A stretch of 32,000 nt of DNA. Origin: Candidatus Saccharimonadota bacterium (lineage in GTDB: Bacteria; Patescibacteriota; Gracilibacteria; BD1-5; UBA6164). The position numbers and the translations under genes were made by a program. The notes under the pieces are model-generated. The model was given only the letters and a program-made list of their open reading frames with translations. It ran no database searches and was not told the DNA's origin. Positions 2,364 to 16,000 of the stretch are shown here, in pieces. Every line of letters begins with the position of its first letter. Position 1 is the first letter of the stretch. Location of the stretch: the NCBI GenBank assembly GCA_004563595.2, contig CP042461.1:810001-842000 (forward strand). Direction: 5' to 3'.

Positions 2364-5300
2364 TTAATAACTCAAATTCAGATAAAATGATAAACTTGTT
2401 GTATAATTCCCTGCTGCTTGAAGTTCATCTATAAGTGTTCAGATTTTTATATTATAGGTATATGTATTTTGTAATCCATCTGTATTCAAGCTTTGAATTT
2501 GAGTAGCAATCACAGGATTTAAGTTTATATTTAAATTTGTTCAACTGTATGGAAATGCATCATATCATACTCATTCTAAACCATCCCAATCAATAATTAT
2601 AGATGAGCCTCAATTATCAAAAGTAGCATCTTTAGAGAGCTGTACATCAAATCCAGCTCAGAGAGTTCTTACGGTAATAATAATCTCATCTGTTGAGAAA
2701 TTGAGTCCTCAACTTGGAAGTGTTCCAGCATCCAAACTTCATGTACTTACAATCAATTCTGGAATGTCTATATAAAAAACTGCTCACGTTGTAGCGCTGT
2801 TTCAGTTATTATCAAATATTTGAAAACTATACCTATATTTTCAAAAGCTAAGATCATTTGTTGGATATGTCGCAGATGTTGCTGTTACTACTTTGGATCA
2901 TAGATTAAATCCTGTTGCAGATATATCTGCTCACCAAGAACTCCCATTCCACTTATTCAATGATATGATATCTGAAGAAGTATTTATTCATGATTCTGCA
3001 TCTGAATAGTTAATAACAATATTATGATTTCATCATGGCAACAGAGATCATGAAGAAAAATTGATAGATGAGATAACTGGATCAGTAGAATCAACTGCAG
3101 TATTTTCAAATGTAATATAATCAATAAAAGCATTATCAGTACCTGAGCTTCATCATCCATCTTTTATAAAACACCATTTATATTGATGAGTTCCAGCTAC
3201 TATAGTATTATTAGAATATGTGGCCCATGGAACCGTTCACGACCAATTTTGAGTATCTACATTATCAATATAAAACCTTAAATAATCACTTCAAGCCTGA
3301 GAAGATACTTCATAATCAAAATTAATTGTTCAAACTGCATCAAAAGTATGTGTTACTTCAAAACAAGACTGAGTATTATCTCATCCATTACTACTCTCAA
3401 AAGAGTAAGATCATTCATTTGGATTTGTTGTAGTCCTTGTCCACGTTCATGACGTAACATTATACTTATATTCATTTAATATATTTTCAAAATCAATAAT
3501 TGAATTAACAGTTTCTCATATATTATTTATATTTATAGTAAATGTTTCTTGATATTGTCATCAATTTCAATCATCAGTCTGAATCCTTATACTAAATGTT
3601 GATTTTATTTCATAATCAGGAGAAATATTTATAGATAAAATTGATCCTACTATTGAAAAAAGTCAGTTATCATCATCTCATGATCATGCAACAAAAGTAT
3701 AGACATGACTATCTCAAATATCTGCATCAGTAGTTGTAAAAGTTCATACTGTGGATCATGCTCAGATATTCTCATTAATACTATTATTTGAAACTGATAT
3801 ATCTGTAGGGATATTATTTGTAGAAGAAAGTGTAGCTATAGTAAATTCACGTGTATTATTAAGGTTTATTCAAGGAATTTGCCAAATATCTCAGCTTGTA
3901 TTTATCATTACTTGTGGAATTTCATCAGCAAGACTATTATCATTATCACTATCATAAACGAAATAATAATCTGTTCAAGCACTCAAGACAGGAACATCAA
4001 AATTGATATTTGCAAGGTCAAAATCCAAATTCACAGTTCATAACTCCCCTGTTTCCTGAACCCTCCAGATACGAGAAAGTGAATAGTATCAAGCAGGTGC
4101 ATCTACAGCCGTCCAAGTATTTCCTCAGTCATTATTTGCAAGTGTTAAAAACTCGAAATCTCATATATCAACAAAACTAGGAGATGAATTTGTCCCTTCA
4201 GATATAGCCTCAATAGTAATAATATTATCATTATTTACAGACTTTGATTTTATTTGTCATAACTCAGATATATCATCTCTTCATATACCAAATATATCAT
4301 GTATATATGATCATGCTGAAGCCGTTGACCATATACTTGTTAATCCATCTGATGCTGTATAATTTTGTACTCAAGAATTAAGAGTCATTCAGTATTTTAA
4401 AGATAAATAAGACTCTAATCTTTCTCTATCAGCATCTGCAATTCTTCCACTATAATTAATTACCTCTGCAATTTTCCCATTATAATAAAAAGGATAGGTA
4501 TTATCTAAACTTCTTCATAATGCATAATCCGCTGTACTCAGTGTTTGATATGTATTTACAGTATAATTATCTACTTGTAAACCCTTTTCATATAGTTCTA
4601 GTCCATTTGCTCATGAATTTTCATTTGAAATAATAAGCATTGGCTTTCATGCATCATAAGATGCTATTCAAATCTGAGATGTTCTCAAATTTACACTTGA
4701 TCAAATTGCATGCGTAATAACTTCATCATTAATTGCTGCAGTAAAGGCACCTAGTGTTACTCATGCAAAGCTTAATCAGCATGTTCATGTACTTAATATT
4801 CATGAAAAACAATCAAATCCAAATGGAACCTGTCAGGTAATAGTTCCATCAATAGTACTATCAGGAACAACAACAAGCAAATAACTATCCGTGTACGCTC
4901 CATTATTTAAGTTTTCTAAATATTGTGTTGATCCATTAAAATCAATCACAGGATTAAAATTAAGAGAATCTGTTGTATTACTTCTATATATAGGTGATAC
5001 TCATCATCATGCATTAAAACCATTTCAAGATTGGTCATTCCAACTACTCACACTATTTCAATCAGTAGTAGTACTTGTCCCTTGATCAGCTTTCAGCCAT
5101 ATTTGTAAATTAGTTCCGACTCAACCAGGTCCTGGATCATCACTTACTATTACAGAAACTCAATCTAATTCTACTTGCTGAGTCCCATTTGAAGTTAAAA
5201 ATGCTTTGAATGTAAATATATCAGTTCCTCATCATAGAGCATCAAAAGTAGAGATATTTGTATGTATAATAGATGCGGAGCTTGAATTTATTACTCATGA

Positions 5301-6659
5301 GACTGTTGTTTGCCATGAAGCACCATTATAATAATACCAGGTAATTCAATCATTTTTTGATATTTGATATGTTACTGTTCCTTGGTTTCATCAGCCTAAT
5401 GTTTCTGAAAATCATAAAATATTATATCATAAGTAATCATACCCTGTATTAGGAATCACATCTGGGCTCTGTGAATCATATTCATATGTTAAAATTTCCA
5501 ATCCATCACTTACACCTGAAGCTATATATAGGTAATTTCATACTTTAAATACTCACCTCGCACCATTCAGTTCTTGAGAACCTCATGAATTAAGGATAGA
5601 ATTTAGGAAAAGTGGTGAAAGAGGATTTGAAATATCAATGGCACTTACTGCATCATCTACATTAGCTGTAATAAAAAGAGTATTCCCCTCAATCAATAAA
5701 CCTCTTGCTCAGTTTAAAAGAAAATCTCAACCATCATCAATAGACTGTGCAATAAATAAATTCGATGGATCACTAATGTCAACTATTTGGAGAGAATCAT
5801 CTATATATGATGACACATAAGCGTAATTTCATGAAATGGTAATTTTCCAGGCACCATTTAAACGAGTATCAGTAATACTATCATCAATTACAGGAACTAT
5901 TGGGTTTGAAATATCAACACTTGTAATTCTATCTCTTGTATAAGCTGTAGCAAATATATAATTTCAAGATACATACAGTCATCTTGTTCATCTTAAATTC
6001 GTTGTATCCCTTAATGCTGTAATCCAAACAGGTGAGACAGGGTTAGAAACATCAATAACAACTATCGAATGATCTGATTGAGAAGATACGTATAAATAAT
6101 TCCCATTTTTTACTATTCACCTTGCTCAGTTTAATCTATTAGAAGTCGGACTATTTAAAACTTGAGCTATTGCAACTGGACTTGTTGGAGATGAAACATC
6201 TATAATTTGTACAGCATCACTCACTTGTGAAGCTATATATATATAATTTCAATCTTTCACCAATGAAGAAGCTCAATCTAAACGTATAGTTCATCAATTA
6301 TTTTGTAGAGTAGCAACAATAATAGGAGAAGTTGGGTCTGAAATATCAATAACCTGAAATCTATCACCATTATAAGCTGTCATATATGCATAATTTCAAT
6401 CAACAACCACATCATCAGCTCCGTTCAGAACTGTCCCATCAGTCACACTTCCTATATGATTAAATTTCTCTTTTAATGTAGCAATAGAAGAGCTTATATC
6501 GATACTATTAACATCTGATACAGTATAATTTCATTGAACATCAAAGCTCCAATTATTTGCTGCAGCATATGTTTGGTAAGAAAAAAACACCAGGCTTATC
6601 AAGCAAAGGAGTTGAAAAATAAAAGAAAAATGGACTTTTTTTACTCAAGAATTACTCAT
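2364..6659 (-). CDS. Giant secreted surface protein (1431 aa). Domain order: signal peptide, about 8 LVIVD beta-propeller repeats, LamG-like lectin domain, cadherin-like domain, MAM/CUB-like jelly-roll, Ig-like C-terminal region
   Basis: ATG 6659 to TAA 2364-2366 spans 4296 nt, and I scanned all 1431 triplets and found no TAA or TAG. The N-terminus MSNSGVKKVHFSFIFQLLCLISLVFFSYQTYAAA looks like a signal peptide. The motif GNYAY.....F.VIDISDP.SP recurs about 8 times (LVIVD type). Other recognisable segments are LQIWLKADQGTS..VSSWNDQSGNG (LamG_3-like) and PTDISVSNNSINENIGAGSTVGTFTTTDADIGDSHVYTF...FSIRIQTDDGNGG (cadherin-like). Confidence 0.9.
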
Positions 6660-7238: not shown

Positions 7239-9065
7239 ATGCTGGAAAATATAATAAATAGAGTTTTAGAACATCATGATGATTTTACTTATGAAGAAGT
7301 AAAAGAAATCTGTGATGATTTTTTAGCTGAGATACCAAAAAAGATTAAGCCAGAAACAAAATTAAAAAGACTGAATAAATTTCTAGATAAAGAATTTGAG
7401 TTAGAAGGTAATGATATGAAAACTCAATGAGCTGTTAAAAACTATTCACTGGAAACCATTCCAAAATACCTTTTTGAATGAAAATCAAAAATAGTATCAA
7501 GTTTAATAAATATAAAAACCTTAAATAAAAACATTGAGCAAACATATTTATTTGAAAATGCGAGTTTAAAAGTAAATAGTAATGATAAAATTGCTCTTAT
7601 TTGAAAAAATTGATGCTGAAAAACTACTCTTCTTAAAATGATTATCTGAAAAGAGGAAAACTTAGATGGTATTATAGAAATAGCACCAGGATTAAATATA
7701 TGATATCTCTCTCAAGATCTTTTTTGGAAATCAGAAAAAAATACCCTCAAAGAAGAAATGCTTGAACTTTTTCCTGAAATAAATAAACAAATTGCAAGGC
7801 TCAATGAAATACAAAATGATTCTGAAGCTTGGGAAGAAGTTGAGTCTTTAAATAAATCACTTATAGAAGAAGATGGTTTCAAAAAATATCTTCTTCAACT
7901 AGATATTTTAAAATATTTTTGATTTTCAGACGAACAACTTGATTTTAACGTATTACAGTTATCTGGTTGAGAACAAACAAAAGTACAAATTGCAAAATTC
8001 TTAATTCAAGAAGTTGATTTACTCATACTCGATGAACCAACAAACCATTTAGATATTAATGGGATAATTTTTTTAGAGCAATTTTGTAAAAATTGGAAGA
8101 AGGCAATCCTTTCAATATCACATGATATTAGATTCATAAATAACACTTCAACTAAGATTGCAGAGATATCAAATAAAAGTATCCATAATTACCCAGGAAA
8201 CTATGAAGAGTATTTAATAGAAAAACAGTCTCGTTTTGATAAAGAAATGAAAGACTATACGAATCAAAAGAGAGAAATAGATAGGCAAAACGATTATATA
8301 AATAGATTTAGAGCTAATTCTGCAAAAGCAAGTAGTGTTCAAAGTAGAATTAAAGCTCTTGATAAGGTAGACGTATTAACAAAACCTGAAAATGAATCAA
8401 TCATAAAAATGATTCAAGTAAACTCAGATAAAAGACTCCCCGAAGTTATCATGAAACTTCATAATGTAGAAGTATGATATGACTATCCTATAGTAACACT
8501 CCCAAAATATATAGAAGTATATAAATCTGATAAAATTTGAATTATTTGAGAAAACTGAGCTGGGAAAACCACATTACTCAAAACTATTTTGTGAGAGTTA
8601 AGTGCACTAGATGGAACTTCAGAAATAAATGAAACTATTAAAATAGGGTCATACTCGCAAGTACTTGAAGATTTAGATATAAATTCAAGTATCATAGAAG
8701 AGCTCTGAAAAGATTATGAAAGTGAAAAAGAGATCAGAACTATTCTCTGATGATTACTCATTCAGTGAGACAAAGTAGATCAAAAAATATCAACACTTTC
8801 TGGTTGAGAAAAAGCAAAAGTAGCACTTACTAAGATGTTACTAGTAAAACCACATATAATCGTAATGGATGAACCAACCAATCATTTAGACCTGCATTCA
8901 AAAGAGGTTATCAAAAAAATGTTAGAATGATTTAATGGGACTACTCTTATAGTTTCCCACGATAGAGATTTACTTGAGTCAGTTTCAAATAAAATCTGGT
9001 TGATAAAAGAAAAAATGCTTGTAGTTTATAATGAACCCGAGAAAGGTTTTAGTGAGATTTTTTAG
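7239..9065 (+). CDS. ABC-F family ATPase (two ABC domains, no TM domain), 608 aa, with an N-terminal extension of about 87 aa
   Basis: A single frame runs from ATG 7239 to TAG 9063-9065. Walker A 1 is written ALI-TGA-KN-TGA-C-TGA-KTT at 7596-7628. The signature is LSG-TGA-E with Walker B LLILDEP. Walker A 2 is I-TGA-II-TGA-EN-TGA-AGKTT (about 8536-8575). The second signature is LSG-TGA-EKAKV with IIVMDEPTNHLD. The track ORFs 7239..7430 and 8247..8477 are pieces of this gene. Confidence 0.93.
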
Positions 9066-9090
9066 GGAATTAAACCTAAGCACATAAACA

Positions 9091-9125
9091 AAAAAAATAG
9101 TAATTTTAAAATTACTATTTTTTTT
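9091..9125. terminator. Bidirectional terminator between the convergent ABC-F and SSB-tail genes
   Basis: This is a perfect 17+17 nt palindrome: aaaaaaatagtaatttt (9091-9107) and aaaattactattttttt (9108-9124). A-tracts and T-tracts lie on both sides. Confidence 0.7.
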
Positions 9126-9127
9126 GT

Positions 9128-9427
9128 TTAGAATGGGATATCTTCAACTGAGATATCTCATGCTTCATTATTTCCTTGTGCATTATTTGATGCTGGAGTA
9201 CTTGCTGGCTTATTATTAGCTTCTTCAGGATTCCATTCATTTAATGTAAAGTAATGTGTATCACCATATTGCCCTGGTTCTTTTCTTTTGCTCATTGTCA
9301 TATTTACATATCCTTTCTCATTTGCATATTGTTGTAATTTTTCAACATTTACACTAATATTAAAAAATTCTCCAAATTGTCCTGTAATAGCTTTACAGCT
9401 TGTCCCATCAATATATGTTTTTGCCAT
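9128..9427 (-). CDS. Small acidic-tailed protein ending in the SSB C-terminal tip ...EDIPF; putative non-canonical ssDNA-binding protein, 99 aa
   Basis: The track ORF 9158..9427 stops at a TGA. Reading that TGA as Gly adds GDISVEDIPF before TAA 9128-9130. The architecture is a globular N-terminal region, a low-complexity PASTPASNNAQGNNEA linker and a D/E-IPF tip, as in bacterial SSB. The N-terminal domain is not a canonical SSB OB sequence that I recognise. Confidence 0.75.
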
Positions 9428-9600
9428 GGTTTATTATTAATAATATTATACTAAACAATTATAGTTATTTTTTAAATCTATCAAGTAAATATTTAAAATA
9501 ATATGAACTGAGCATCTAAAATCAAAAATCAAACGTGACTTTTAATAATCAATCCATTCCTTGATTTTTTCCATTTTTTTAAAGGTAAGAGAACTATTTT

Positions 9601-11835
9601 TTATTCAACATTTCAGTCTGAATCCATTTTCGCAAAAAATGCTTCATTTGATCAAACAGCTGTGAAACTTTGTCATGCAATGATGGATGTTCATTCATAT
9701 GCTCATACTAAATATAGACTTGTTCCATCAAACTTTATATCCGAATAATCATCTCTAATTTTATGTTCTCAATATAATTTACTCCAGATAGCATTTCAAC
9801 TAGAATCAAGTTTGCTTACATAAGTAATTCCATCTACCGGGGCATTGACAGATTGTCCAAATAAATCATTTACTCATACTCAAACAGATCAAACCGAATA
9901 TATATTTCAACTACTATCTAAAGCAAGTTTTTGTCAGTAATCATTTCCAGGTCATTTTCAAATACTATTCCAAACAAGGACACCATTACTCGTTATTTTT
10001 GAAACATAGGTATCATTACGGCTGGCATTTGTTGCTGAACTTACAACTTCTCAAAACAATGTTGCAGAAACTCACCTAAACCACCCTGTAAAGAAGATAT
10101 TTCAGTTATTATCAAAAACTATATGTTCAGACTCTTCATATCATACTCATCAAGATGTAAGTATCCATTGTAGTACTCATGAATTATTCATTTTAAGTAC
10201 ATATGAATCGCCATCTCAATAAGTAGTTATACTCGTTCAATATAAGGTCATATTAGCAGAAAAAGATCCGGCTATATATATGTCTCAAGTGGCATTATCG
10301 ATATCAATAGTATTTCACCAATCAGTTCAAATTGAGTTTGAATTCTCGACCCACGTGCTTGTTAATGTATTATCTAATTTTACTACAAAACTATCAGGAT
10401 TTGCGTCAGGAGAGCTGATAGACATTCAAAAAATATCAGCGGTTCAGTCATACTGTCATGTTATATACACAGATCAATCATTTCAAATCACTATTCACTT
10501 TGGTCTATCATCTCAACTTCAACCTCATTTTTTATTAATTAATACGTTTCAATCAGAATCAAATTTTGTTAAAAATATATCATAACTTCAAGAGTTAGTA
10601 AATGATGTTCAAAAAATATCAGGACTTCCTGTCGAGAATCTTCATATCATGTATACATTATCATTCGAGTCTATTTCTAGCATATAAGGCACATCTTTTC
10701 CAGTTCATCATGCGGTTTTACTCCATATATAGTTTCAATTAGAATCAAGCTTTGCTAAAAACGTATCGTAATCTCAAGCACTTGTATAGGTCTCAGTTCA
10801 AATTGTTACATCTCATTTATATAACCCTGCTACATATATATTTCCAGAAGAGTCATAAACAATTGATTCTCAGTATGATTTACCTGAAGCATCTGTCGCG
10901 ATAGAGTTTACGAAGTATGTAGGTCCGGTATCTACATATGTGTCTATTGAAGAGCTAATGTGTTGCTTTACTATTAAATTAGCTAAGGTTTTTTCATCAG
11001 TAGTTCAATTAGCTGTGACAGTAATCGTTTCAATAGTGTTATTATTACTTACAACGTCTGTCCCTGTATAAATAGTTTGTAAATTGTTCAATAATGTAAC
11101 TTGGTTACTTATTTCATTAAGAGATGCAACTGATCATGTATAAGCTACAATGTTTCATGGATTAAATGTAAATCAAGCCCCATTTCAAGTTGTATTTAAC
11201 ACAGTTCATATATAACTTGCTGGTAGGTTAGATGACCCATTATATACTAGAGATCCAGATTGCATAAGAGAAATTATATCTCTGAGCGTTATATCTCATG
11301 AAATAATAGTAGGTACTCATAATACATAAGTAATAGATCAGGTATTTACTTTAGCAAGTATTTGATTGTAATTTCATTTTATATAAGTATACCCAACTTT
11401 TGTTCCTTCAGCATAAGCAGAATTTGTTAAACTATTTTGTGCTATTGATCATTCCATTACAGCTGCTACTTCATACTCTTTCTTTGTATTCAGTCTTGAG
11501 TAAGTATATTCAGATTCCGTGAGAGGGTCAACAGGTTTTTGATTAAAACTTCATAAATTTAGAATTATACTATCTCAAATAGTTCATTGATTCCAAACTT
11601 GTGCTCAACTAAATGTTATATCTACTCATTGAGTTGGCTCTGGAAATACTCATGTTTTTACTTCGAATAATCACATTGCAGAAGTTATTTGTGCAATATC
11701 AGTTTGTCTGACTGAATCACGAGCATTAGCAGAATATCACTGTAAAGATATAAACGCGATTGTTCATAAAATGGCTAAAATTGTAATAACAACTATGAGT
11801 TCAACAAGAGTAAATGCGTATTTGTTTATTTTCAT
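9601..11835 (-). CDS. Type IV pilin-like protein (prepilin N-terminal methylation domain) fused to an SBBP-type beta-propeller, 744 aa
   Basis: ATG 11835 to TAA 9601-9603; I scanned all triplets and found no TAA or TAG. The N-terminus MKINKYA/FTLVELIVVITILAILGTIAF is a class III signal plus hydrophobic helix with Glu5. The C-terminal half repeats D.SGNIYV.G....G......G and F..KLDS.GN..WSK about 7 times (SBBP propeller). Confidence 0.9.
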
Positions 11836-11965
11836 ATGTAGCTAGGTAATTAAAAAATAATTTGTATGCATTCTATGCAAAAAATAACTAATGTAAAATC
11901 TGCTTTTCAATCAAGCAAAGCTTTTGATAATGAGGGTTATACAGAGAAATTATTTGTTACACAGT

Positions 11966-11998
11966 AAAACCCCCTTAGTCTAACTAAAGGGGTTTTTT
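11966..11998 (-). terminator. Intrinsic terminator downstream of msrB (hairpin usable in both directions)
   Basis: In aaaaccccctt-agtctaact-aaggggtttttt, the stem pairs cccctt (11971-11976) with aagggg (11987-11992). T-runs flank it on both strands. It starts 19 nt after the msrB stop. Confidence 0.7.
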
Positions 11999-12016
11999 AT
12001 TTTGAATAATAGAGTG

Positions 12017-12445
12017 TTATTCTCATTCAAATATATTTTTATATTCTCAAAATCATTCAGACTCTAATTCGTCATATGGAATAAATTTTAGAGCAGCTGA
12101 ATTGATACAGTATCTCAGTCCTCAAAATTCTTTAGGACCATCAGGAAACACATGTCATAAATGTGAATCTGCTGTATCACTTCTTACTTCTATTCTTGAT
12201 CTTAATAATTTCATATCAGAGTGTTCTGTAACTCTGTCTTCTTGAATAGGTTTAGAAAAGCTTGGCCAACCACATCCTGAGTCAAACTTGTCTTTTGATG
12301 TAAACAAAGGAGTTCCATCTACTATATCAACATATATCCCATCGTCTTCATGGCTCCAGAATTCATTATCAAATGCTGGTTCAGTAGCACTATTTTGAGT
12401 AACTTGATATTGTATATCAGTTAATCTTTCTTTTAAATTATTCAT
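12017..12445 (-). CDS. msrB: Peptide-methionine (R)-S-oxide reductase MsrB, 142 aa
   Basis: The track ORF 12155..12445 continues through a TGA. Recognisable segments are ...[32 protein letters not shown]...[42 protein letters not shown]. The catalytic RYCINS motif is present. Confidence 0.93.
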
Positions 12446-12474
12446 ACTTTTTTTAATTATAAATTATTGTCCCT

Positions 12475-12921
12475 TTAACTACAAGAATAAGGAGTATCTC
12501 ATGCTTTTTCATAGTATTTTTGGTGATATTCCTCAGCTCTATAAAATAGAGTTTGAGGAAGGACTTCAACAACCACTTCCCTACTCTCAGTTTTTTGAAT
12601 CTTATTTAAAAATTTTTCTATTATATTTTTTTCTTCTTCATCTCAATAATATATAGCTGATTTATACTGTTCAACTTGGATAAGACAAGTGGGATCTCTT
12701 TTCTCTACAAAACCTTCTAATAATTCTTTATATGAGACTTCTTCTGGATAATACTCTATTTTAATAGCTTCGCTATGGTCAAATAAATCATCGTAAGTAG
12801 GATTGAGTACTACTCAGCCAGTATATCAAACTTCGGTTGATTGCACTCAATCAATTTGATCAAAATATTTCTGGACTCCCCAGAAACAACCTAAAGCAAA
12901 AATTGCATCTTTTGTTTTCAT
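12475..12921 (-). CDS. msrA: Peptide-methionine (S)-S-oxide reductase MsrA, 148 aa
   Basis: [36 protein letters not shown]... contains the catalytic GCFWG motif. The frame runs from ATG 12921 to TAA 12475-12477 with no TAA or TAG. msrB starts 29 nt downstream, so the two form an operon. Confidence 0.92.
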
Positions 12922-13021
12922 AAATATCGACTTAATAGTTAAATCTCAGCATATTAGCTATGAACAGTCTATAAAGTAACCTTAAAAAAAACTTAAATAG
13001 TATTTTAATTACTAAAAAAAT

Positions 13022-13054
13022 AAAAAACTCTAGAAAGTAATCCTAGAGTTTTTT
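13022..13054 (-). terminator. Intrinsic terminator of the second pilin-like gene
   Basis: The stem pairs aaaaaactctag (13022-13033) with ctagagtttttt (13043-13054) around a 9-nt loop. It starts 8 nt after the stop at 13062. Confidence 0.75.
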
Positions 13055-13061
13055 ACGTTTC

Positions 13062-14864
13062 TTATTTAAAATAAATTGTAATTCATTTTTTTGTACCTAT
13101 CCACATGTTTCAATCAAGGTCTTGAAATATTACTTGTACATCCTTATCAGCTAATCAATCAATTATAGTATAGTCCTTCCAAGTTGATCCATCATACATA
13201 CTTGCTCAATTCAGAGTCGCAAACCACATATTTCCGTCTGAATCTTGATAAATATCATTTATAAATTGATCTGTTAATCAATCAACTTCATTGTATGTAG
13301 TCCATGTTGCTCCATCATACTTACTCACTCAATCATATGTTCCAAACCATATATTTCAAACAGTATCCGAATAGATAGTATTCACATTTTTATTTGTTAA
13401 TCAATCAGATTCATCATATGTCGTCCATGATACTCAATCATATTTACTGACTCCATCTATAGTAGATATCCGAATATCTCATCATACTGACTGAGTAATT
13501 CAAGTGACAATTTTGTTCGCTATTCCGTCAGCTGTTGTATAGTCATGCCAACTTGATCCATCGTATTTACTCACTCATTTTTTTGTAGCAAACCAAAAAT
13601 TTCATGAAGAATCTTGAATTAAATCTACTACATCATTATCAATTAATCAATCAGATTTATTATATGTAGTCCAGACAGAACCACTCAAAGTACTAATTCA
13701 TTTATTTGTTGCAAACCACATTTCTCAAGCACTTGCTTGTAATACGGTTCTTACATCTTTATTTACTAATCAATCAGCTTCAGCATAACTTCACCAAGTG
13801 TTTCAGATAAAAGTACTCACACCGTTTTTTGTTGCAAACCACATATTTGAAGAAGTATCTTGCGCAATGGATCTTGTATCATTATCAAGTAAAGAATTAC
13901 TTAAATCATATGTTAACCAATTAGGTCATGAAGTTAATTCTAATGGTAAATCAAGATCTAGTTGATTATTCACAAGATCATATGCTATTTCTCTCACAAT
14001 TTTAGAAGGATTTAGGAGATCAATTTCAACTCACAAGATAGAATCAAAAATAGGACTTTCCTCTAATATCGTTCAAGAATATGATGATTGAATATTATTT
14101 AATAGCTGAATCCATTCACTCTCATTATTTATTAAATTATCATAGGTTCATCAATATAAAACAAATATACTTGGATCATAATCAAATCATCAATCAATTT
14201 TGAATACCGTTCAATCATACGACGAAGCAATATTTCAATATCACTTATAGGCCAAAGTTTTTTTATCAATAAGTTTTATAATATCAGTTTCAGTTGTATC
14301 ATAGCTCAATATAGTTGGTAAAGCTAGAACGTATATTAATCACCCTGTACTCGTACTTAAACTCAATCAATTATAGTTTCAAACAACCAAACTTCTTACA
14401 GGAATATTTCAGCTTGCATTTGCTTTATTAGTAAAGCTGTTCAACATTATATCATCAGACTCTAAAACTGTTCATAGTTCATATTGCTTTCTATCATTTG
14501 CTAGAGAATATGCATACTCATTTCAACTCACTAAGTCAGTAGGTTTCTCACTTAAAATTCAGACTAGTCTACGAACCGTATCTCAAAAAGTTCATTGACT
14601 CCATAGTGTGGCTCAGCTGAAAGTAATATTTGACACGTTATCAGGCTGGGGATAAAATCAAGATTTTGTCACAAATACTTCAATTCAAAAATCTATTCTA
14701 TTTAGATTTTCAAATCTAGATACATCTCTTGATTTTTTTAGAAATCAGCTCACACCAAAGAAAGCTATAGATCATAGAATTGCTAAAATAGTAATTACAA
14801 CTATCAATTCTATGAGACTAAAAGCCTCTAAAAAGAGAATATATTTCTTGAATATAAGCTCCAT
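13062..14864 (-). CDS. Type IV pilin-like protein fused to a 7-bladed Reg_prop-type (two-component-regulator propeller) beta-propeller, 600 aa
   Basis: ATG 14864 to TAA 13062-13064; I scanned all triplets and found no TAA or TAG. The N-terminus is MELIFKKYILFLEA/FSLIELIVVITILAILGSIAFF. The first ~200 aa are paralogous to the 9601..11835 protein. The C-terminus repeats the motif D..GN.WFAT..G.S.YDG..W seven times. Confidence 0.9.
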
Positions 14865-15077
14865 TTTTTTAAAAGTCTTTTTCACCCTTTTTAGTTTTCT
14901 TTTCAAACTACCTTTTATTATTTTTTTTATTTCCATTCTTTCAATAAAATTTAGTAATTATTTATCGGAGATAATAATATCATACTATTTATTTTTTGTA
15001 AAAAATATCAGTAATTTTATTTTACTAATTAAAAAGTTTCAATATCATACAATTCAATATCTTCTAAAACAATACAC

Positions 15078-15317
15078 ATGAGAATAAACATTACAGCTAA
15101 ATCTATATGAAATTGACTTGCTTTATTACAATCAAAAGTAGATGATCTTTTTGATTTTTGATTTAAAAAGCTCTCAAAAGCTACAAAAAAAGAACTTCCT
15201 AAAGAGACAAACAAAGTAAAAAAAGCTGGTTATAAACTATGATGATTTATTTGAAATGTTTGAAAGAGTTACTATAAAAAATATAATGAAATAAAAGAAG
15301 AACAAGCAAAAAAATAA
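15078..15317 (+). CDS. Small lysine-rich hypothetical protein, 79 aa
   Basis: ATG 15078 to TAA 15315-15317, with 7 in-frame TGA read as Gly (MRINITAKSIGNGLALLQSKVDDLFDFGFKK...GYKLGGFIGNVGKSYYKKYNEIKEEQAKK). The stop lies in a terminator hairpin. I recognise no homolog. Confidence 0.4.
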
Positions 15318-15344
15318 CAGATATTATATATCTGTTATTTTTTT
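15308..15344. terminator. Bidirectional terminator shared by the convergent genes 15078..15317 and 15335..16000
   Basis: The stem pairs aataacagata (15313-15323) with tatctgttatt (15329-15339) and is flanked by A- and T-runs. Both stop codons lie inside the hairpin. Confidence 0.7.
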
Positions 15345-16000
15345 GCTAACTTATTTAAATATGAATCAAAAGGATGTAAAATCTTACAGAGGGAGGCTAA
15401 GTGTATCAAAAAATCCTCTGCTAATACTTCATCATCAGTAAAATTATGAAGTGCATAAAAACCTTTGTATCTTAATAATTCAATTTCTGGATGGTCTTTT
15501 GCAAATCACCTTGGTGCAGTCTTTAATTTTGAGCCTCTGATTTCAAAAGCTTTTTTAAATTTACTATTTGATATAATCCCTTTAATCTCATCAGGAGCAT
15601 TTACTATATTATTTCTCATATTATGTAACCACTCCGCTTCTGGTGCATACGCTCATCAAACTAAAAAATTATTTCCTGGTTCAATATTTAAAAAATATCC
15701 TGCTCTCTTATGCATAGATGGTTTTCATCAATCAGCAATAAGTAAACCATGATTATTTTTATATGGTCTCCCTTTTGCAAATCTTGCATCACGATAAATA
15801 CGAAACATATATGGCTCAGATTCCATGTTTTGAATCGATTCATCAAACTGATTCAGTTTTAAATACCACTGATTTGCAAATGCTTCAAGCTCTTTTTTTA
15901 TAATGAGATATCTGTCTTTATTTTCCAGGAACCATTCACGATTATTATTGTTTTTTATTTCATTCAAAAAAGAGAGGGCTTTTTTATTAATTGTTTTCAT
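15335..16000 (-). CDS. DUF2461 (TIGR02453) family protein, 221 aa
   Basis: The track ORF 15728..16000 continues through tandem TGA codons. Recognisable segments are ...MFRIYRDARFAKGRPYKNNHGLLIAD-GG-KPSMHKRAGYFLNIEPGNNFLVGGAYAPE...TAPRGFAKDHPEIELLRYKGF..., ending at TAA 15335-15337. Confidence 0.85.

Follow-up and report, generated by a model that had tools for sequence, protein, structure and literature searches.

Two large genes at 9601-14864 and the genetic code of the window

The stretch of DNA analyzed here (the window) comprises 32,000 nucleotides (nt) of contig CP042461.1 (assembly GCA_004563595.2, positions 810,001 to 842,000), deposited under the name Candidatus Saccharimonadota bacterium. 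At window positions 9601-14864, the reverse strand carries two large genes, designated A and B, each of which encodes in a single frame an N-terminal pilin-like carrier and a C-terminal β-propeller, the tail. We regard it as rather probable that the two products are modular type IV pilins serving as low-abundance, pilus-displayed adhesins that are probably exposed at the tip. The features of the two genes are listed below (aa, amino acids; ORF, open reading frame; pLDDT, predicted local distance difference test).

9601-11835, reverse strand: gene A, modular pilin of 744 aa; ORF in code 25 with stop TAA at 9601-9603; identical to database protein P0121
11815-11835, reverse strand: leader of A, MKINKYA (aa 1-7), read from the sequence; predicted prepilin-peptidase cut after Ala7, giving F1...E5
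11311-11814, reverse strand: pilin module of A (aa 8-175), helix α1 (aa 10-61) followed by a β-sheet head; from the AlphaFold2 model, the profile match, and weak GspG matches at aa 8-126
10936-11310, reverse strand: extra α/β subdomain of A (aa 176-300), common to B and the whole family; from BLASTP, family alignments, and pLDDT values of mostly 85-97
10891-10935, reverse strand: linker of A (aa 301-315), predicted to be disordered; pLDDT below 50 at aa 303-311; family homology ends here
9604-10890, reverse strand: seven-bladed SBBP-type β-propeller of A (aa 316-744); from PF06739, NF047494, repeats, and Foldseek
13062-14864, reverse strand: gene B, modular pilin of 600 aa; ORF in code 25 with stop TAA at 13062-13064
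14823-14864, reverse strand: leader of B, MELIFKKYILFLEA (aa 1-14 in the short gene model); predicted cut after Ala, giving F-S-L-I-E
13935-14822, reverse strand: carrier of B (aa 15-310), consisting of a pilin module and the conserved subdomain; homologous to A aa 8-300
13065-13913, reverse strand: seven-bladed Reg_prop-type β-propeller of B (aa 318-600); from PF07494, seven repeats, and a 123-nt periodicity of the DNA

Translation table 25, in which UGA specifies glycine, is the only reading in which genes A and B exist. Under table 11, both are fragmented by in-frame UGA codons (66 in A and 44 in B), and the ORF listing for 9601-14864 contains none of at least 150 aa. For the whole window (1-32000), the number of frames of at least 150 codons rises from 3 under table 11 to 28 when UGA is recoded; the stop-to-stop frames of the two genes then span 746 codons (9601-11841, reverse strand) and 631 codons (13062-14957, reverse strand). 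UGA supplies 66 of the 87 Gly codons of gene A and 44 of the 56 of gene B, and is found at conserved glycine sites such as ILAILG of the pilin part, GYTGG of MsrA, and the DG/GG motifs of the propeller repeats. Because UGA occupies these conserved positions, table 25 is the code of the window. This table is typical of Gracilibacteria and Absconditabacteria, and the source is a Gracilibacterium, a tiny, probably host-dependent organism. The two large ORFs of 744 and 600 aa given in a preliminary description of this DNA were thus recovered at their positions, under code 25 only. Many public entries of the carrier family defined below have been translated with table 4 and display Trp where Gly belongs (e.g., ILAILW).

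In a protein search, the gene A product was 100% identical to P0121 and had a paralog of likewise 744 aa (P0122; QFR39410.1), with 84% identity in the tail and 78% over carrier residues 61-300. For gene B, an alternative ATG at 14936 would yield a protein of 624 aa, the upstream DNA being compatible with either start. Gene B is an intact ORF and yet has no public protein entry, whereas gene A and the paralog P0122 both have one; the public record may lack an annotation for gene B or mark it as a pseudogene.

Prepilin N-termini of A and B

The two proteins start with MKINKYA/FTLVE (A) and MELIFKKYILFLEA/FSLIE (B), the slash marking the predicted cleavage site. Read further, the sequences are MKINKYA/FTLVELIVVITILAILG for A and FLEA/FSLIELIVVITILAILG for B, so that a leader ending in Ala, the pattern F-x-x-x-E, and a hydrophobic helix are present in both. 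Consequently, A and B each display all elements of a prepilin, namely, a leader ending in Gly or Ala, Phe or Met at +1, Glu at +5, and a stretch of about 20 hydrophobic residues. F1 and E5 are invariant across the alignments of the carrier family, and the residue at -1 is Ala or Gly family-wide. Protein A exceeds the cut-offs of both PF07963 (N_methyl; 26.9 bits, cut-off 21.2) and TIGR02532 (23.3 bits, cut-off 16.3), and B exceeds that of TIGR02532 with 19.4 bits. The motif and these scores agree with the earlier proposal that both proteins possess a prepilin leader with Ala at -1 and a methylation-type helix. The profile of the carrier family matches solved pilins through α1 only, specifically Geobacter PilA (1e-11), S. 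sanguinis PilE1 (2e-7), GspG (4e-7), and Neisseria PilE. With N_methyl and either SBBP (A) or Reg_prop (B) in one ORF, both proteins show the arrangement that defines modular pilins, i.e., a pilin module, a linker, and a domain that is not specific to pili.

A shared carrier of about 300 residues

BLASTP aligned A and B over 336 positions with 36% identity (E = 8e-57), while nothing aligned in the C-termini. The homology of family members to A stops at about residues 260-300 of A. The preliminary description had noted a homologous head of about 200 aa followed by entirely divergent C-termini; the homology and the divergence hold, and the length of the common part is about 300 aa instead.

The AlphaFold2 model of A (run as P0121) has a mean pLDDT of 75.8. 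It features a 52-residue α1 helix (aa 10-61), a head of seven strands between aa 68 and 173 with pLDDT values of mostly 86-96, the extra α/β subdomain at approximately aa 187-292 (mostly 85-97), and an all-β domain at aa 319-737. The stalk-only relative P0004 is predicted to adopt the same carrier fold, with a pLDDT of 85.5 and a predicted template modeling score (pTM) of 0.79. The closest neighbor of the carrier in the Protein Data Bank (PDB) according to Foldseek, non-significant at E = 0.52 and with TM values of 0.43-0.45, is PilA1 of C. difficile, the major pilin of a monoderm. Since the profile match is confined to α1 and no significant Foldseek match in the PDB was obtained, the head is read, on the basis of the model, as a divergent pilin-like fold, to which a subdomain without a solved relative is added.

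Seven-bladed propellers of two kinds

The tail of A belongs to the SBBP family according to PF06739 (31.8 bits, cut-off 20.5). It contains seven repeats of the form D-x-x-G-N-x-Y-x-x-G with a period of about 62 aa and shares 33-36% identity over approximately 415 aa with SBBP proteins. Assignment to the LipL53 equivalog NF047494 was rejected, as the score of 119.9 bits (E 1e-34) lies below the cut-off of 400. The tail of B is a Reg_prop domain (PF07494; 95.1 bits, cut-off 20.4) with seven W-F-A-T-x-x-G motifs and a repeat period of 41 aa (123 nt). Neither gene contains a TAA or TAG codon between stalk and propeller, i.e., the propellers are not separate ORFs and the frames run uninterrupted from one part into the other. 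An SBBP tail on one protein and a seven-bladed Reg_prop tail on the other, as originally suggested, are therefore borne out by the profiles and by seven repeats in each.

In a Foldseek search with the propeller of A, which had been modeled from three sequences only (pLDDT about 55-85), the propeller of the Friedel-Crafts alkylase CylK ranked first (E = 1.7e-17, 24% identity), followed by ligand-binding propellers, e.g., BtuG, and sialidases. These matches raise the possibility that the propellers are extracellular enzymes or sensors, A acting as a CylK-like catalyst or hydrolase and B as a ligand-sensing Reg_prop domain; the best-known examples of such domains occur in sensor kinases (Pfam description), and modular pilins with peptidase modules have been listed by Raynaud et al. 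(PMC8179133). The identity to CylK is only 24%, however, B lacks a transmitter domain, the nearest relatives in sequence are uncharacterized surface proteins with sorting domains of the type IX secretion system (T9SS), and the other tails of the family are typical binding modules, so that we consider a catalytic or sensory role quite unlikely and prefer to regard the propellers as the binding heads of adhesins.

The carrier family across genomes

A word-indexed protein search with the carrier returned 1,180 matches, for which the organism, where named, was always a member of Gracilibacteria or Peribacteria. At E ≤ 1e-30, the family has at least 1,584 representatives (clusters at 50% identity); in the best 150 of these, the carrier is always N-terminal, and the lengths are mostly 450-950 aa, with a maximum of 1,752. 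Scanning the GTDB representative genomes with the alignment-driven pattern VVITILAIL gave at least 554 confirmed carrier-family stretches. All locus analyses reported here (neighbors, tails, msrAB, and PilT) refer to the best 76 loci of these. Among them, 20 are from a single metagenome-assembled genome (MAG), Loclat_bin-20132, and 12 from another MAG. Translated in code 25, the 76 loci contain 113 family genes, 98 of them complete, with tails of 0 to 1,128 aa. Current public labels of family members are GspG or "type II secretion protein G."

The tails are highly diverse. BLAST clustering of database members gave 29 clusters among 58 tails, and coverage-filtered clustering gave 56 clusters among 83 tails (81 from the loci plus those of A and B). 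The latter replaced a loose single-linkage clustering, in which 49 tails, including that of A, had been merged via shared sub-domains. Pfam-recognized tails are of the binding type (Lcl_C, Fib_succ_major, discoidin, LamG, fibrinogen-C, TSP1, and DUF285); Listeria-Bacteroides repeats, RCC1 propellers, and right-handed β-helices are also found. Overall, three kinds of propellers and lectin-like domains occur among the tails. Pilin-SBBP fusions were found elsewhere in P0122, P0123, L001, L019, and L048, and pilin-Reg_prop fusions in P0242, P0276, L002, and L034 (P, database proteins; L, loci). At the family level, the idea of a common stalk with many alternative binding-type modules is thus sustained, and the survey of related genomes that had been recommended for further stalk-plus-variable-tip paralogs revealed many.

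Stalk-only members account for 7 of the 88 genes with a mapped tail (about 8%). Their rarity would suit a scenario in which A and B are major subunits forming thick filaments with a propeller on every subunit, as would the fact that no other pilin-like family is as abundant in these genomes as the carrier family; a flexible linker could splay the cargo outwards. Type IV filaments have tight subunit spacing, however, into which a propeller of about 32-47 kDa would have to fit. About 15 paralogs with different heads are better suited to a set of minor subunits, and the bulky pilins of TM7x and S. sanguinis, described below, are minor as well. We therefore hold the major-subunit scenario to be very doubtful. 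As not every subunit of a filament could accommodate a propeller of this size, A and B are most likely minor pilins.

Tandem arrays of two to four family genes are present in some loci. As a separate observation, clusters of three to four genes with pilin motifs, many with differing tails, occur in L022, L061, L013, L015, L018, L044, L053, and L067.

Inheritance of the stalk-tail fusions

The preliminary description had envisaged the tips as interchangeable. In its strict form, this is a cassette system in which propellers are recombined between stalk genes to switch host specificity, and it would be in keeping with the common stalk and its highly diverse tails and with the tandem arrays. At the DNA level, A and B share a single stretch of 51 nt with 78% identity and nothing longer, on which ground recent gene conversion or cassette exchange between them was rejected; junction repeats between the two genes are absent, and neither a recombinase nor silent cassettes were found nearby. 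A complete Peribacteria genome holds full-length counterparts of both proteins, one of 769 aa with 37% identity to A over 776 aa and one of 602 aa with 35% identity to B over 607 aa.

When tail type was mapped onto a neighbor-joining (NJ) tree of 36 carriers, which is without support values and was derived from saturated sequences, the Fitch score was 13, compared to 18.1 ± 0.9 for shuffled tail labels, 14 for the best of 2,000 shuffles, and a possible minimum of 6. The Reg_prop carriers, four in number, all fall into a single clan; A groups with P0122 and L001 in a clade. SBBP-tailed carriers appear at three or more places in the tree, so that the congruence with tail type is imperfect, which is a point in favor of exchange; together with nearly flat BLAST ranks of the carriers, it also softens the view that proteins with the same tail are simple orthologs. 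As tail type nevertheless tracks the carrier tree and the Peribacteria counterparts have diverged to 35-37% identity, the sequences suggest that the stalk-tail fusions are mostly old and vertically inherited, with some replacement of modules over long times. An active cassette system is, in view of the lone 51-nt stretch, the Fitch score, the Reg_prop clan, and the Peribacteria counterparts, highly improbable, and the notion of actively interchangeable tips was not upheld.

Comparison with known pilins and propeller proteins

The design of A and B is already known as that of modular pilins; what is added here is that the carrier family has been defined and its wide range of cargo shown. Modular pilins include PilB, with a vWA module, and PilC, with a lectin module, of S. 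sanguinis (PMC8179133, PMC9934059). The survey of Raynaud et al. (2021) comprises more than 1,200 modular pilins with 264 architectures, many from phyla within the candidate phyla radiation (CPR) and including one Gracilibacteria representative (PMC8179133). Like A and B, PilB and PilC of S. sanguinis combine a pilin with an added module in a monoderm-type envelope, and they are proposed to be tip-exposed adhesins. Unlike these proteins, which have a small pilin module, A and B possess a carrier of about 300 aa with an extra α/β subdomain, a seven-bladed propeller as cargo, and Ala at -1, and they are known from sequence alone; moreover, the carrier family has about 15 or more paralogs per genome, compared to two in S. 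sanguinis.

In our assessment by analogy, the best functional precedent for A and B is PilX2 of the Saccharibacterium Nanosynbacter lyticus TM7x, a minor pilin with a C-terminal seven-bladed propeller of the RCC1 type, whose deletion halved host binding and did not abolish the filaments (PMC11623550). PilX2 and A and B are CPR pilins with a lollipop-like N-terminal part and a C-terminal seven-bladed propeller, a likeness by description only, and the Gracilibacteria carrier, too, is found with RCC1-propeller tails. PilX2 reportedly has no signal peptide of the PilD type, whereas A and B have canonical prepilin motifs; its gene lies in a pilus locus, whereas genes of the A/B family are scattered; and its propeller is of the RCC1 type rather than SBBP (A) or Reg_prop (B).

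The PilY1/PilC tip adhesins of Pseudomonas and Neisseria likewise place a β-propeller for adhesion at the tip of a type IV pilus and occur in many combinations of N- and C-terminal modules. PilY1 is, however, a non-pilin that docks on the minor-pilin tip complex and belongs to another propeller family, whereas A and B carry prepilin N-termini; membership of A and B was dismissed, as no PilY1/PilC Pfam match was obtained at E ≤ 0.1. In GspG/PulG, α1 and the first half of the head are weakly similar to A, whereas A and B are 4-5 times larger and belong to a lineage without an outer membrane or secretin (PMC6851277). The nearest relatives of the propellers in sequence are T9SS-sorted surface proteins of Bacteroidota, Cloacimonadota, and others (27-39% identity for SBBP, about 30-44% for Reg_prop). 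These are extracellular too, exported by means of a signal peptide and a T9SS C-terminal domain, whereas the pilin N-terminus would serve this purpose in A and B.

Proposed role and its weighing

The window appears to derive from the closed 1.34-Mb Gracilibacteria genome described by Sieber et al. (2019), for which PilB, PilC, PilD, and two PilT proteins, but no PilQ, were reported, as well as "15 GspG ... large, on average 528 aa" (PMC6851277). Because PilB, PilC, and PilD are reported for this presumed source genome, the objection that the genome might lack pilus genes would not apply.

From the sequence features, homology, domain identities, family breadth, and predicted architecture described above, we infer the following on processing by PilD, assembly into a filament, position at the tip, function as adhesins, and the ligand. 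A and B would be made as prepilins with a class III signal peptide, and a PilD-type peptidase would cut after Ala -1, exposing Phe1 with Glu5. By means of the hydrophobic α1, the proteins could then enter a type IV pilus assembled by the PilB/PilC machinery. The carrier, joined via the flexible linker to the seven-bladed propeller of about 32-47 kDa, would be exposed as a minor pilin at or near the pilus tip, with the propeller (SBBP in A, Reg_prop in B) serving as the ligand-binding head. The target would be a molecule, probably a protein or glycan, on the surface of host cells, prey cells, or substrates, and PilT-driven retraction would draw the cells together. A and B would be two of about 15 such proteins in the genome, each with a different head.

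Alternatively, the proteins might be displayed on the surface without a long pilus, the pilin-like N-terminus providing only a class III signal and membrane anchor or building a short pseudopilus stub. Archaeal sugar-binding proteins with class III signal peptides and pseudopilins of the type II secretion system (T2SS) are models for such display. The scattered location of the genes, unlinked to pilus operons, would fit, as would the annotation as GspG or type II secretion proteins in public databases, the weak resemblance of the head to GspG, and the many copies per genome, most with bulky cargo. On the other hand, Glu5 and a full-length α1, which are important for filament assembly, are invariant in the family, and a strictly conserved carrier of 300 aa exceeds the needs of an anchor. 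PilX2 of TM7x works together with a pilus, and a classical T2SS would have no role in a lineage that lacks an outer membrane and secretin (PMC6851277). Display without a pilus thus appears unlikely, although less so than the other alternatives considered here.

Several observations weigh against the assignment of A and B as pilus-displayed modular pilins. Protein B scores 18.8 bits with PF07963, below the cut-off of 21.2, and its leader is atypical in being hydrophobic with Glu at -2. Neither protein belongs to GspG or ComGC according to the respective models. As for the major pseudopilin GspG, TIGR01710 matches A weakly (E = 3.5e-9 over aa 8-126), and the scores of 36.8 (A) and 15.4 bits (B) lie far from the cut-off of 88.85; PF08334 gave 16.3 bits at a cut-off of 21 (E = 0.01), and the sizes of 600-744 aa compare with about 140 aa expected. 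For the competence pilin ComGC, NF040999 gave 13.7 bits at a cut-off of 75; Ala at -1 is common to ComGC and A/B, but is a trait of the whole carrier family. No PDB entry matched the carrier at E < 0.001 in Foldseek. The product of gene B, in either start variant, had no identical or near-identical entry in the 15-billion-protein public collection. Evidence that PilB, PilC, and PilD are present comes from the literature and depends on the presumed link between window and genome, and the scarcity of stalk-only members leaves no obvious major subunit. Concerning linkage to a given pilus system, no pilus assembly genes are located in the 32-kb window, so that the pilB, pilC, and pilD genes sought near A and B were not encountered there, and no conserved neighbors of family genes were detected, any neighbor family being present in at most 7 of the 76 loci. 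In favor of the assignment, a PilT-type ATPase (PF00437, E = 1.4e-48) is encoded near a family gene in five of the 76 loci (L046, L048, L067, L025, and L032), in L046 as a 365-aa protein (8774-9871) immediately adjoining a carrier-family gene.

We tentatively consider a broader possibility, namely, that the conserved two-domain carrier of about 300 residues serves Gracilibacteria and Peribacteria, and only these, as a platform for display on pili. The extra subdomain of the carrier (approximately aa 176-300 of A) might then be an adaptor for bulky, diverse cargo of up to more than 1,000 aa, and the 15 to 20 or more heads per genome might be the main determinant of the hosts or prey to which these code-25 episymbionts attach. 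If so, the repertoire of heads would be comparable in role to the repertoires of phage receptor-binding proteins. To our knowledge, host recognition and attachment of ultrasmall CPR bacteria are largely unknown, and Gracilibacteria are uncultured and without a genetic system. A, B, and their family are concrete candidates for the host-attachment step, with a recognizable pilin secretion signal and binding heads amenable to separate expression and to assays with candidate hosts or glycan arrays. The family, which comprises at least 1,584 clusters with dozens of kinds of heads and is represented by many paralogs in genomes measuring about 1.3 Mb, extends the modular-pilin concept, and a sizeable share of these reduced genomes is spent on such proteins. 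This diversification at the family level is more interesting than A and B themselves.

Genomic neighborhood of A and B

The genes and signals between and around A and B are the following.

12017-12921, reverse strand: msrA (12475-12921) and msrB (12017-12445), intervening genes outside the system; from ORF models
13020-13056, reverse strand: terminator-like hairpin directly after the stop codon of B, a 16-bp stem followed by a T run
approximately 11963-11995: terminator-like hairpin after msrB, at consensus level
11870-11897, reverse strand: promoter-like site TTTACA-16-TAGAAT about 35 nt upstream of the start of A, a consensus match only

A and B flank msrAB on the same strand, as had been described, but the association is not conserved, as only 2 of the 76 related loci have msrAB at a distance of 4.5-7 kb from family genes. 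With hairpins behind B and msrB and a promoter-like site ahead of A, the sequence suggests independent transcription of B, msrAB, and A. In view of the low frequency of the association and the separating hairpins, msrAB was rejected as a functional partner. A further hairpin, a perfect 20-bp, bidirectional, terminator-like structure (15305-15347), lies between converging genes upstream of B.

Less than 3 kb from gene A, a third large repeat-rich surface protein is encoded (2364-6659, reverse strand), a secreted protein of 1,431 aa with LVIVD repeats (PF08309, 97 bits) and a weak cadherin-like match. Beside gene A lies an ABC-F-type ATPase gene (7239-9065, forward strand; assigned by eye), homologs of which occur near family genes in L010, L030, L059, and L063; this neighborhood may represent weak residual synteny. 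In L034 (1636-2856, forward strand) and four other loci, an ORF of about 400 aa with a reverse transcriptase-like YVDD motif, recognized by eye, is present near family genes.

Farther away in the window, a type I restriction-modification system with hsdR, hsdS, and hsdM (21994-29852, reverse strand; by eye) is interrupted by genes for a membrane protein of 435 aa with pentapeptide repeats (24862-26169) and a PemK/MazF-like toxin of 192 aa (27590-28168). The window also contains a tmRNA gene (29962-30420, reverse strand), for which ARAGORN predicts the tag peptide AAFSNVTSNTLAFAA.

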